NCBI GenBank assembly: GCA_965218295.1
Contig: CBDCKN010000013.1
Coordinates: 224,001-288,000, forward strand
Direction of reading: 5' to 3'
DNA: 64,000 bases
Source of the DNA: Longimicrobiales bacterium
Lineage (GTDB): Bacteria; Gemmatimonadota; Gemmatimonadetes; Longimicrobiales; Gaopeijiaceae
Position numbers and translations under genes: made by a program
Shown: one piece after another, positions 1,895 through 5,076 of the stretch
Position numbering within the stretch: position 1 is the first letter of the stretch
Layout: each line of letters opens with the position of its first letter
The notes under the pieces: model-generated
What the model was told of the DNA's origin: nothing
The model's input: only the letters and a program-made list of their open reading frames with translations
The model's database searches: none

Positions 1895-2113
1895 AAATCA
1901 CCTTCTGGTGTCCCGCTCATCACGGCCAAGGTTGTGAAGAGAGGACGGATCAGTAGGCCTACAGAATTCATTGCAATTGAGAACTATGGCTCTTGGATGC
2001 AACGTGGCATTCCCCGACCGGGTGATGTCTTAATTACGACTGAAGCACCATTGGGAGAAGTTGCACAGCTCTACCACCAGCGCGTTGCTCCGGCACAACG
2101 ACTTATCCTATTG
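1895..2113 (+). pseudogene. hsdS: Type I restriction-modification specificity subunit (HsdS) fragment, cut by IS256
   Basis: GVPLITAKVVKRGRI...GIPRPGDVLITTEAPLGEVAQL resembles an HsdS target-recognition domain. Lower GC; ends at the IS256 IRL. Confidence 0.65.
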
Positions 2114-2274
2114 GAGTTAGGATCAAAGGCATCATAGGGGCATGGCGACCGCTACCGGTACCGATCAGCAGCTAAGCAGCCCGAAGACGAAGAGGCGTTC
2201 TCCTCCGGGAACGGGTGCGCGTTCATCATTGTTCGCGCAAGGAAGCAACCCACCTATCCAAGAGGAGGATGCCG

Positions 2275-3330
2275 ATGGAGAGATATATCGGACTCGACGC
2301 ACACGCGTCGAGCTGCACGCTGGGGATCGTAGGACCCAGCGGAAAACGTTTGGGCTCGCAGGTGGTGGAAACGAACGCGCGGGCGCTGATCGAGGTGCTG
2401 CGAGGGATTCCGAGGAACCAGCACTTGTGCCTGGAAGAAGGGACGCTGTCGGGGTGGCTGTACGAGGTGCTGGAGCCGCACGTGGAGGAGCTAACGGTGG
2501 CGGGGGTCGGCAAGAGCCGGGGCCCGAAGACCGACAAGCTGGACGCGTTTGCCCTGGCGGAGAAGCTTCGGATCAGATCACTGGAGACGAGGGTCTACAA
2601 GAACCGGGGCCAGTTCAGGCGGCTGGGGGAACGGGCGAAGAGCTACGACTTCCTGGTCGGCGACACGGTGCGGGTGAAGAACCGGCTCAAGAGCGTGCTG
2701 CGCTCGAGAGGAGTGGCCTACGGCGCGGGGCGCTCGGTCTACTTGAAGCGCGACCGGGAGGAGTGGTTGGCCAAGCTGCCGGAAGCGAGCAGGGCGACGG
2801 CCGGGTTGCTGTACGAGGAGCACGACGCACTCGTGGCATTGAGGGCGAAGGCCGAGAAGGCGTTGCTGGCGGAAGCACGCAAGCATCGAGAGTGGCATGT
2901 GCTGAAGACGTGCCCGGGTCTGGGTCCGATCCGGACGGCGGAGCTCCTGCCGGTGGTGGTGACGCCGTACCGGTTCCAGAGCCGGAGCAGATTCTGGGCG
3001 TACTGCGGACTGGGCGTGGTGATGCGGAGCTCGTCGGACTGGGTGCGGGGTCCGGGTGGGCGGTGGGTAAGGGAAGCGGTACAGCAGACGCGGGGGCTGA
3101 ATCGGAACTTCAACCACACGCTGAAGCGTGTGTTCAAGGGCGCGGCGACGACGGTGATCGGTCGGGCCGAAAACGAACCCTTGTACCGCCACTACGAGCG
3201 ACTCCTGGAGGGGGGCACGAAGCCGAATCTGGCGAAGCTGACGATCGCGCGTCAGCTCGCCTTGATCGTGCTAGCGGTGTGGCGCACGGGCGAAGCGTAC
3301 GACCCCAAGAGACTGGAAGCGACGGAGTAA
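2275..3330 (+). CDS. IS110-family DEDD recombinase/transposase
   Basis: AGGAGG RBS then MERYIGLDAH, LEEG, KTDKLDA (DEDD), CPGLGPI and YCGL...RSSS motifs. Frame intact. Confidence 0.95.
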   Translation: MERYIGLDAHASSCTLGIVGPSGKRLGSQVVETNARALIEVLRGIPRNQHLCLEEGTLSGWLYEVLEPHVEELTVAGVGKSRGPKTDKLDAFALAEKLRIRSLETRVYKNRGQFRRLGERAKSYDFLVGDTVRVKNRLKSVLRSRGVAYGAGRSVYLKRDREEWLAKLPEASRATAGLLYEEHDALVALRAKAEKALLAEARKHREWHVLKTCPGLGPIRTAELLPVVVTPYRFQSRSRFWAYCGLGVVMRSSSDWVRGPGGRWVREAVQQTRGLNRNFNHTLKRVFKGAATTVIGRAENEPLYRHYERLLEGGTKPNLAKLTIARQLALIVLAVWRTGEAYDPKRLEATE

Positions 3331-3399
3331 ACCGGGCCGGGATCGGCGAGCGTGGGGTCGAAAGCGGTCACAACATGGGGTCCGACGAAACGGAAGCGA

Positions 3400-3545
3400 A
3401 CCGGTTACAGGGGACAGCATCCATACACACCGTGGGCCGGGGCAGAGAGCCCAAGCCCCCACTCAAAGGCTATGCACCCCTGGAGAGCCGAACGAAGCGA
3501 TGGGCCACAGAGTCCCAGATAGAAGGATGGTTCCCGCTCCAGAGC
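3400..3545 (+). ncRNA. Predicted bridge/seek RNA core (target-binding loop plus donor-binding loop)
   Basis: Stem CAGGGG..GCAT/ATGC.CCCCTG with inner GTGGG/CCCAC encloses TACACACC (3424-3431) and TCAAAGG (3463-3469), matching both strands of the target. A second stem GGAG..GAAC/GTTC..CTCC with inner TGGG/CCCA encloses ATAGAAGG (3519-3526), matching the element's right end plus core. RNA ends are approximate. Confidence 0.8.
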
Positions 3546-3696
3546 GGAGAACGCGACGGCTGTGAACGTCTTCCGGACTGCGATGCGGACCCTGCGAGCG
3601 CACCCCTCCCCACCCTGAGTCGTCGACCGGGCAATCCAAACCATGCGGACGCCGACGGTCAAAAAATGAGCCGACGGCGCGTGGGGAAGGTGCGTC

Positions 3697-3719
3697 TTGA
3701 CCGCCAGCCCCATAGAAGG
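3697..3719 (+). promoter_or_regulatory. -35 half of a circle-junction promoter of the IS110 element
   Basis: TTGACC (3697-3702) plus 17 bp through the AAGG core would abut CATCAT (2130-2135) upon circularisation. Confidence 0.7.
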
Positions 3720-3846
3720 GTGTGTAAAAAGAGCGGCGACGTACCTTTGCGCTGAGATTTAAACCAGCGAGCCCGGGTGACAGCCCAATCGGTATCCTCG
3801 GCCGCCCAATCCCGGAACGACGACCGGAAGCCGTGCGGCACGGCCG

Positions 3847-5047
3847 ATGTGGGAGACGCTCGAGGGGATGGTTAGGGAGAAGGCGCAGGAGTGCATCCAA
3901 CAGATCATGGAGGAGGAAGTCACGGAGTTATTAGGCCGGGAGAAGTCAGAGCGCAGGAGTACGGTGGACTCGGTCGAGGGCTACGGCAACGGATATGGCA
4001 AGCCGAGGCGGTTGGCGATGAGCTCGGGCACGATCACACTCCGACGCCCTCGGGTTCGGGGCGTCGAGGAGCGGTTCGAGAGTCGGGTGCTGCCGTTGTT
4101 CGCGAGGCGGACGCAGGAGCTGGGCGCTCTGCTTCCGGAGCTGTATCTGCATGGGCTGGCAGAGGGAGACTTCGAGCTGGCGATGCGGGGACTGCTAGGC
4201 GAGGGGGCACCGCTGTCGAAGTCTTCGATTCGGAGACTGCGGGCGGGATGGACGGCGGAGTTCGAGGAATGGAGCCAGCGTCGCCTGGAGGGCCGTGAGG
4301 TCGTCTACGTATGGGCGGACGGGATCTACGTGAAGGCAGGGCTCGAGCGGGACAAGGCGCTGCTGCTGGTGGTGCTGGGCGCGATGCGAGACGGGACGAA
4401 GGAGGTGTTGGCCCTGAGATCGGGCTACCGAGAGTCGGTCGAGTCCTGGTCCGAGGTGTTGCGGGATGTGAAGGCACGCGGCATCGAGGCGCTCCGGCTT
4501 CTGATGGCGGACGGTAACGCGGCGATCTGGGGCGCAGTACGGCAGATATGGCCTGAGGCGGGCGAGCAACGGTGCTGGAACCACAAGATGAGGAACGTGC
4601 TGGACCGGCTGCCTCAGCGGGAGCAGAGCGAGGCGAAGGATCTTCTCAGGGACCGTGGTCTACGCACCGAGCCGGGCCGAGGCTGTGAAGGCCCGCGAAG
4701 TGTTCGCCAGGCGCTACAGGCCGTGGTATCCGAAGGCGGTGGACGTACTCGAGGACGACTGGGAGCGGATGGTGGCGTTCTACGACTTCCCCGAGGATCA
4801 CTGGAAGCATCTACGCACGACGAACGTGGTCGAGAGCCCGTTCGCTGCGCTACGGCTCAGGACGACGGCGGCGAAGCGATTCAAGCGGGTCGAGAGCGCT
4901 ACGGCGCTGATCCGGAAGTTGCTCTTGGTGGCCGAGAAGCGGTTCCGAAGGCTCGACGCTCCTCACCTCCTCAAGGACGTGTTTGAAGGAAGGAAGTTCG
5001 AAGACGGAAAGCCCGTCTCAACCCAACAGCGGAAAAACGCCGCCTGA
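3847..5047 (+). pseudogene. IS256-family transposase, frameshifted near 4650 and with an altered 5' end
   Basis: ORFs 3847-4986 and 4655-5047 together match the intact transposase at 20638-21882. Confidence 0.9.
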
Positions 5048-5076
5048 TACGTTTACACACCTATTGACCCAACCTC

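Follow-up and report, generated by a model that had tools for sequence, protein, structure and literature searches.

In the window, the 64,000-nucleotide stretch of Longimicrobiales DNA analysed here, an IS110-family element of 1,590 bp lies inside the left terminal inverted repeat (IRL) of an IS256-family insertion sequence, and the explanation that best accounts for this arrangement, with a probability that we put at about 0.9, is RNA-guided insertion of the IS110 element at the AG of the IS256 left repeat. A first-pass annotation of this DNA had proposed such RNA-programmed, sequence-specific insertion, and the proposal is now strongly supported by copies from other genomes, by covariation between guides and flanks, and by the off-target sites. 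RNA guidance, natural reprogramming and the targeting of other mobile elements are already established; what is new, in the literature searched, is the class of target, namely the left repeat of IS256. The features of the locus are as follows.

2114..2126, + strand: outer 13 bp of the IS256 left inverted repeat, the left half of the target, ending in TCAA (junction comparison)
2127..2128, + strand: AG core at the left junction, IRL positions 14-15 (homologue junctions)
2127..3716, + strand: IS110-family element with IS1111-type layout, 1,590 bp
2130..2135, + strand: predicted -10 hexamer CATCAT of a putative circle-only promoter, overlapping the right-donor sequence CATC
2134..2147, + strand: left sub-terminal inverted repeat, set back 7 bp from the end and pairing imperfectly with 3702-3713
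2275..3330, + strand: IS110 DEDD recombinase, 351 aa, with D8, E54, D87, D90 and S253 (Pfam and alignment to IS621)
3408..3482, + strand: predicted target-binding loop of the bridge/seek RNA (fold of the homologue alignment)
3424..3431, + strand: right-target guide TACACACC, complement of GGTGTGTA
3461..3469, + strand: left-target guide segment ACTCAAAGG, of which TCAA and the core AG match the repeat
3483..3535, + strand: predicted donor-binding loop, with GATG (3499-3502) complementary to the left end and ATAGAAG (3519-3525) equal to the right end plus core
3697..3702, + strand: predicted -35 hexamer TTGACC, 17 bp from the -10 hexamer in the circle
3702..3713, + strand: right sub-terminal inverted repeat; the terminal extension beyond it measures 3 bp (3714-3716)
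3717..3718, + strand: AG core at the right junction (homologue junctions)
3719..5076, + strand: rest of the host IS256, with the right target in the inner half of the left repeat (3719-3726), a frameshifted transposase (about 3847-5047, break near 4652) and the right repeat (5054-5076)

The letters AAGG stand at 2126-2129 and again at 3716-3719 with a spacing of 1,586 bp, and the element had initially been delimited by them; letters and positions are correct, and the core is the 2-bp AG, not AAGG. Junctions were compared among relatives from 47 genome and 80 metagenome loci. On the left they always read AG-G-C/T; on the right, the base next to AG may be G, A, C or T. With that base variable at the right and constant at the left, the shared core is AG, a 4-bp AAGG duplication is ruled out as the core, and the element therefore spans 2127-3716. 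AG is found at both junctions in nearly all readable homologues, a shared core with no true target duplication, as is usual in the IS110 family. The layout is that of the IS1111 group, with 386 bp of non-coding DNA downstream of tnp and 148 bp upstream, and with sub-terminal repeats (2134-2147 and 3702-3713) that have 12 matches and two single-base gaps and are less perfect than is typical. They leave extensions of 7 and 3 bp, which the available text of PMC11187229 gives as an IS1111-type trait. Joining the element's ends in silico produces the promoter-like pair TTGACC-17-CATCAT, and a promoter scan of the linear element found no promoter-like site. No circle joint was present in the contigs of four public runs, which cannot reveal rare forms; the two public RNA runs contain small shares, and the coverage obtained from one of them is confined to 2358-2643, a stretch of 286 bp within tnp, which gives no evidence of expression or habitat.

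The recombinase carries an N-terminal DEDD RuvC-like domain (PF01548, 41 bits, cut-off 29) and a C-terminal Tnp domain with the catalytic serine (PF02371, 33 bits, cut-off 21.3). It matches NCBIfam NF033542 over its full length (E 8e-32) at 110.7 bits, below the curated threshold of 140, and judged from its sequence it is a divergent clade of the IS110 family. Residues D8, E54, D87 and D90 align with D11, E60, D102 and D105 of IS621 and are conserved among homologues; S253 aligns with S241 of IS621 and is followed by S instead of G. A profile search matched IS621 and ISCro4 (PDB 8wt6 and 9t56, E 1e-11 and 4e-9), a single-sequence search of the PDB with the recombinase gave no match, and a single-sequence AlphaFold model had a pLDDT of 40 and was unusable. 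The C-terminal motif across the clade is GLGIVMRSSSD; since the GL-P----S(t)G motif of the IS1111 group is absent, we file the element as IS1111-like in layout only and not as a strict member of that group. The window's recombinase has two private changes at otherwise conserved positions: Q49, where 48 of 49 scored sequences have R or K, and L330, where 47 of 48 have S or A. All 22 copies in genome G551 have R and S there. A recombinase with Q49 and L330 may be weakened, and the window's own IS110 copy is probably old or weakened.

An alignment of the RNA region from 25 homologues yielded two stem-bounded loops with 98.3% of cells paired, and in the first loop the columns that vary are those of the two guides. 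Within the predicted fold TACACACC at 3424-3431 and TCAAAGG at 3463-3469 face each other across a single internal loop, just as first annotated, and the left guide proper (3463-3468) together with 3424-3431 spells both halves of the IS256 left repeat. The guide complementary to the top strand (3424-3431) lies 5' of the bottom-strand guide (3463-3469), which is the order found for the IS1111 group in the part of PMC11187229 that we could consult. The predicted RNA thus has what is expected of a bridge or seek RNA, namely two loops, guides complementary to target and donor, and conserved stems; the fold rests mostly on conservation, because only 2 of 29 pairs change on both sides. The donor guide and the right end change together in loci L008 and L058, and in L054 the guide alone changes and mismatches its end. 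The right guide takes three registers relative to the core: one in most homologues, a shift of one in the IS256 group and L058, and a shift of two in L079 and the three off-target sites. No match to the RNA region was found in Rfam. Words of equal length match on both sides for 1.3% of 20,000 random AG sites from the window's genome set against the same non-coding region, so that the double guide match in the window alone is suggestive, and it is the homologue data that carry the case.

Across homologues the guides change with the flanks, a covariation that the first-pass annotation had put forward as a check. Among loci with a readable guide and flank (7 duplicate loci and identical pairs dropped), the right guide, at the best of three registers, agrees with its own flank at a mean of 6.79 of 8 positions over 28 pairs, against 4.42 on average and at most 5.5 in 20,000 shuffles. 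For the left guide, with the core excluded, 37 pairs give 4.41 of 6, against a shuffled mean of 2.94 and a maximum of 3.68. The permutation test treats kin as independent and so overstates significance. Misfits to the flank are seen in L020 (3 of 8), L062 (2 of 6), and L086 and L105 (1 of 6). Non-canonical right guides match their own non-IS256 flanks at 7, 6, 3, 8, 8, 8, 8 and 8 positions, as against canonical values of 3, 1, 4, 3, 3, 4, 2 and 3. In most homologues the guide is an ancestral one that specifies GGAT-AG-GAAATYCAA, a short and imperfectly palindromic site whose surroundings are otherwise unrelated (L006, L051, L052, L059, L111 and others); flank comparison, by which the identity of this target was sought, gave mutually unrelated flanks. 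A relative at 77% DNA identity (L266-L268 of genome G380) has guides TAGCCCCCA/CATCATAGG and lies in another repeated site, and its left guide differs by one base from that of L062 and L063.

Both junctions could be read for 48 elements with the IS256-type guide: 43 lie in the left repeat at one base (42 by script plus L287, which was re-read and has a one-base deletion in the element's own end), one shares that position in a repeat whose inner half holds a group II intron, one is a hybrid with a foreign left flank (L172), and three are outside IS256. Collecting the copies and aligning their flanks, as had been recommended with the original proposal, thus places 44 of 48 at the identical base of the IS256 left repeat, in a sample biased in that five of the seven genomes were reached (G273, G551, G457, G541) or followed up (G417) through junction or repeat patterns. 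The scored copies come from the window's genome, G000 (1), from G002 (6), G417 (6), G273 (2), G457 (5), G541 (4) and G551 (23), and from one metagenome contig, L063 (1); four G417 loci are the same as L001, L002, L004 and L005 and were counted once, and partial copies and L003, which has a different guide, were left out. The right junction is present in 7 of 301 family genomes, copies within each genome were listed by DNA search regardless of flank, and L001-L005, L063 and the G002 copies were found without a junction filter. That all copies lie within IS256 is ruled out by the three others (L272, at GACTCAA-AG-GTGTGAC, L254 and L261); copies in unrelated sequence had been named as grounds for rejecting the proposal, yet these three sit at partial guide matches. 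In contigs of runs X3, X7 and X11 the element's right end is joined at the same base, and no core variants were listed in public contigs, which drop rare variants. One copy in G541 (L255) has three extra bases (AGA) at its right junction, possibly from imprecise insertion or as an excision intermediate. Group II introns, recognised through Rfam, also split the IS256 left repeat in G417 (L302), G002 (L305) and G551 (L289), at GTGTG|TA in two genomes and GGTG|TGTA in the third, and in L289 one repeat holds both an IS110 element and an intron.

The host transposase is of the Mutator-type DDE class (PF00872) and scores 206 bits against NF033543 (cut-off 150), which assigns it to the IS256 family, and TGTAAA is present in both repeats. 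The window's host is a damaged copy, with the frameshift near 4652 and no target-site duplication. It had been stated that rejoining the junctions restores the IRL of the window's copies 2 and 3; the IRL is indeed split, but the rejoined repeat differs from them at position 4 (GAGTTAGG versus GAGCTAGG), and against the 45 standard copies in the genome it shows a one-base difference in its outer part. The 3.57-Mb genome holds about 46 IS256 left ends, with target-site duplications at 30 of 36 full-length empty copies, and because most copies have duplications and open frames the sequences indicate a recent burst. All 46 exact guide-defined sites are IS256 left repeats, and a single site out of 47 is occupied; with 46 intact targets empty, saturation is ruled out for the window's genome. 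Elsewhere in this genome there are a 3' remnant of the element with a decayed inner repeat of IS256 behind it (C12:183930-183676), two left-end relics after an ancestral GGGATAG flank (C3:154175 and C3:85551), and a separate IS110 element at 41% identity (C3:280305-279268). Around the locus, the left junction, the variant repeat and at least 160 bp of flank (window 1967-2783) are shared at 98% with L294, from a genome that belongs to a different genus (G551) and in which the element is internally deleted. The IS256 end cuts a 99-aa frame (1838-2137, + strand) without a Pfam or NCBIfam match. Its GDVLITTEAPLGEVA stretch is reminiscent of a type I restriction specificity subunit. Further upstream (2-1438, + strand) lies a protein with about seven 44-residue repeats that look tetratricopeptide-like by eye.

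In G551, 22 repeats are occupied with both junctions read, and none of the six empty repeats (five full-length and one relic) keeps an intact target, each being altered within the 14 bp that the guides match (to TCAG, TCGA, GTGAGTA or GTGTGCC, by a deletion, or by an insertion). G417 has five occupied repeats and 12 empty ones, none of the latter intact (nine with an AT core, two with TA, one TCAC), and G273 has two occupied and two altered. Intact empty sites occur in G002 (5), G541 (2) and G457 (1).

As to why the empty repeats are altered, we lean towards neutral standing variants together with leftover excision scars, with no selection by the IS110 element. An AA core is found in 37 of 40 repeats in G380 and also in G295, G488 and G490, four genomes in which no IS256-targeting element was found; these rule out the idea that non-AG cores are limited to genomes with the element, and because the AA core is common where no such element was found, core variants alone are not evidence of escape. 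The IS256 right repeat carries TA at the core position, which suggests that these bases are free to vary, and the five altered full-length repeats of G551 are single-copy, two or three of them bearing letters of the IS110 right end that make them look like excision scars. Harder to fit with neutrality is G417, where the AT core occurs in nine dispersed copies, every AG-core copy with an intact TCAA is occupied, and the change strikes the second core base, nearly invariant in IS621 in the consulted part of PMC11208158. A tentative and on balance doubtful extension is that the IS110 element acts as a sequence-specific brake on IS256 bursts in an arms race, in which the same guide has arisen twice, the left repeat is split exactly between the two transposase-binding sites, every intact copy is filled, core-less IS256 alleles are selected and a sister element has been re-tuned to the right repeat. 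If that were true, IS110 elements would be regulators of IS load as well as passengers, and guide, target and escape allele could all be read in the genomes of two insertion sequences.

Many occupied copies would show neither repeated targeting nor immobilisation if one or a few insertions had been followed by spread of an IS256::IS110 composite as a unit, moved by the IS256 transposase. Such spread would explain why composites have target-site duplications of their own (8 of 17 scored hosts in G551; two perfect and two near-perfect among five in G417) and why A follows the core in 5 of 5 G417 composites and in no AG-core empty copy; moreover, ISCth4 in vitro integrates junctions in which one repeat is reduced to a 14-bp stub, according to the available text of PMC7780238. 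Duplications, however, are equally expected if IS256 moved first, and three copies lie outside IS256 at guide-like sites. Hosts vary far more than the element that invades them: host IS256 copies have about 74-95% identity to the window's host, and in G002 near-identical IS110 elements occupy three full-length hosts that are just 79-92% alike. G551 presents the reverse: 12 identical IS256 bodies carry 12 different IS110 haplotypes, with a mean of 11.6 substitutions (range 0-23, plus indels), and because identical hosts carry different haplotypes the sequences favour separate insertions after an IS256 burst over composite transposition. Later gene conversion between two IS110 types could shuffle haplotypes, and halves of target-site duplications have been exchanged between G551 copies, which shows recombination between copies and is a possible reason why the window's host lacks a duplication; linkage between element and host SNPs in G417 was limited by too few sites and mosaic hosts. 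Taken together, we regard composite spread as quite improbable. Targeting by a protein or a DNA structure, for example by IS256 transposase bound at its end, with the RNA matches incidental, is more improbable still and hardly to be reckoned with. The site evidently attracts several elements, as group II introns land in the same repeat, and one ancestral guide common to most homologues inflates similarity; against this, non-canonical guides in homologues fit the non-IS256 flanks beside them, the empty G551 sites are marked by single-base lesions in the segment that the guide matches, and the right repeat, where the same transposase binds and the core position reads TA, is used in none of the 48 copies.

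The IS256-type guide itself likely has two origins. A quick maximum-likelihood tree of 55 recombinases splits the elements that carry it into two groups, window/L001/L003 and L062/L063, the latter at 68% identity to the window's recombinase, and each group is nested among elements with the ancestral guide. A single clade of IS256-guide elements is rejected for the protein (AU p 1e-5) and for the guide-free RNA (36 rows, p 8e-6), and with these tests, on quick trees, one origin by descent is ruled out. In L062/L063 the 28-nt hairpin that separates the guides, like the remaining RNA, is 88-92% identical to clade mates and 82% to the window; because the hairpin differs too, convergence of two lineages appears more likely than a loop swap. 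That the guide arose once and passed between lineages by a short recombination event seems to us unlikely: the right guide is common to both lineages (8 of 8 in L063), as is most of the left guide, and L062 has IS256 guides yet an ancestral-type left flank, but hairpin and remaining RNA follow their own clade, so that no whole-loop swap is seen and two separate micro-swaps would be needed. L062 (450-2134), with its IS256-type guides and ancestral left target flank, may represent in-place reprogramming or a chimeric contig. L003 (2362-3947) is a 94%-identical element whose guides fit the IS256 right repeat; it adjoins the outer half of that repeat, and its right flank is unrelated DNA.

In the mechanism that we propose, the non-coding region downstream of tnp would act as a bridge RNA that guides the recombinase to the repeat. 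By analogy with IS621 and ISEc11, the element would circularise and its junction would create the promoter TTGACC-17-CATCAT; the target loop would pair with one strand at TCAA-AG and with the other at GGTGTGTA, the donor loop would pair with the joined ends, and the DEDD/serine recombinase would swap strands at the AG core. IS256 copies would be invaded one by one, after their own transposition, and an active element would fill nearly all intact repeats so that only altered ones stay empty. The transposase of ISCth4, an IS256-family enzyme, binds repeat bp 1-12 and 14-25 through separate sites, as far as the text of PMC7780238 was available. Because insertion at bp 14-15 separates two binding sites of this type, an occupied end likely cannot act as donor, and the occupied copy, split between two transposase-bound parts of its repeat, would transpose poorly until the IS110 element is excised. 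Long occupancy would fit IS621, in which excision is much less efficient than insertion (PMC13626964, in the part consulted). The earlier suggestion that the element probably immobilises each host copy is therefore retained as likely, from the split binding sites, for occupied copies; it does not extend to each host, as 46 of 47 sites in the window's genome are empty, and the ISCth4 junction with a 14-bp stub still integrates, if more slowly.

IS4321 and IS5075, of the IS1111 group, are said to have been described by Partridge and Hall in 2003 as inserting in the terminal repeats of Tn21-family transposons. The Tn21-family terminal repeat is 38 bp long. Like these elements, the one described here has sub-terminal repeats and a downstream non-coding region, and interrupts the terminal inverted repeat of a different mobile element at one fixed base; unlike them, its target is the left repeat of the IS256 family, in Longimicrobiales-like hosts. 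IS4321/IS5075 are also mentioned in the consulted part of Siddiquee et al. 2024 (PMC11187229), as are ISEc11, ISKpn4 and ISPa11 with their seekRNA, which share with the present element the 7- and 3-bp extensions, the downstream RNA, the guide order and natural reprogramming among relatives at 70-85% identity. Their targets, in contrast, are a short linear site, attC and REP, they have the GL-P----S(t)G motif where this clade has GLGIVMRSSSD, and that part of the text does not report two of their lineages converging on one new target. The same source describes ISEc21, of the IS110 type, which also undergoes RNA-guided insertion into another IS family, but its RNA lies upstream, and it targets not a terminal repeat but the DDE codon region in transposase genes of the IS3 family. 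With IS621 and ISCro4 (PMC11208160, PMC11208158 and PMC13626964, each in part) the element shares DEDD plus serine, a 2-bp core, predicted target and donor loops and a putative junction promoter; it is only a distant sequence relative of theirs, and IS621 has an upstream RNA, a CT core and REP targets.

The first-pass annotation knew of no IS256 ends serving as such a target, and this agrees with the literature searched, in which no report of IS110 elements in IS256 ends was found; the supplements and target logos of PMC11187229 and PMC11208160 could hold one. A search for the element name ISMpa1 found no such report, and the available text of PMC13604230 does not mention IS256. What is added here is two apparent origins of one guide, saturation with only altered sites left, and a position between transposase-binding sites. 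The copies form a natural many-copy data set for an IS1111-type bridge RNA in a divergent recombinase clade with an AG core, comprising on- and off-targets, resistant sites, register shifts and reprogrammed relatives, and they raise a question that is testable through changes to short oligonucleotides, namely whether RNA-guided IS elements limit other mobile elements and whether those escape. Two further loci, L166 in G273 and L293 in G551, have the tnp 3' end and RNA region in tandem, with three and two RNA copies, respectively, joined at an internal AG; they resemble the half-match duplications discussed in the part of bioRxiv 10.64898/2026.08.14.744561 that was available.
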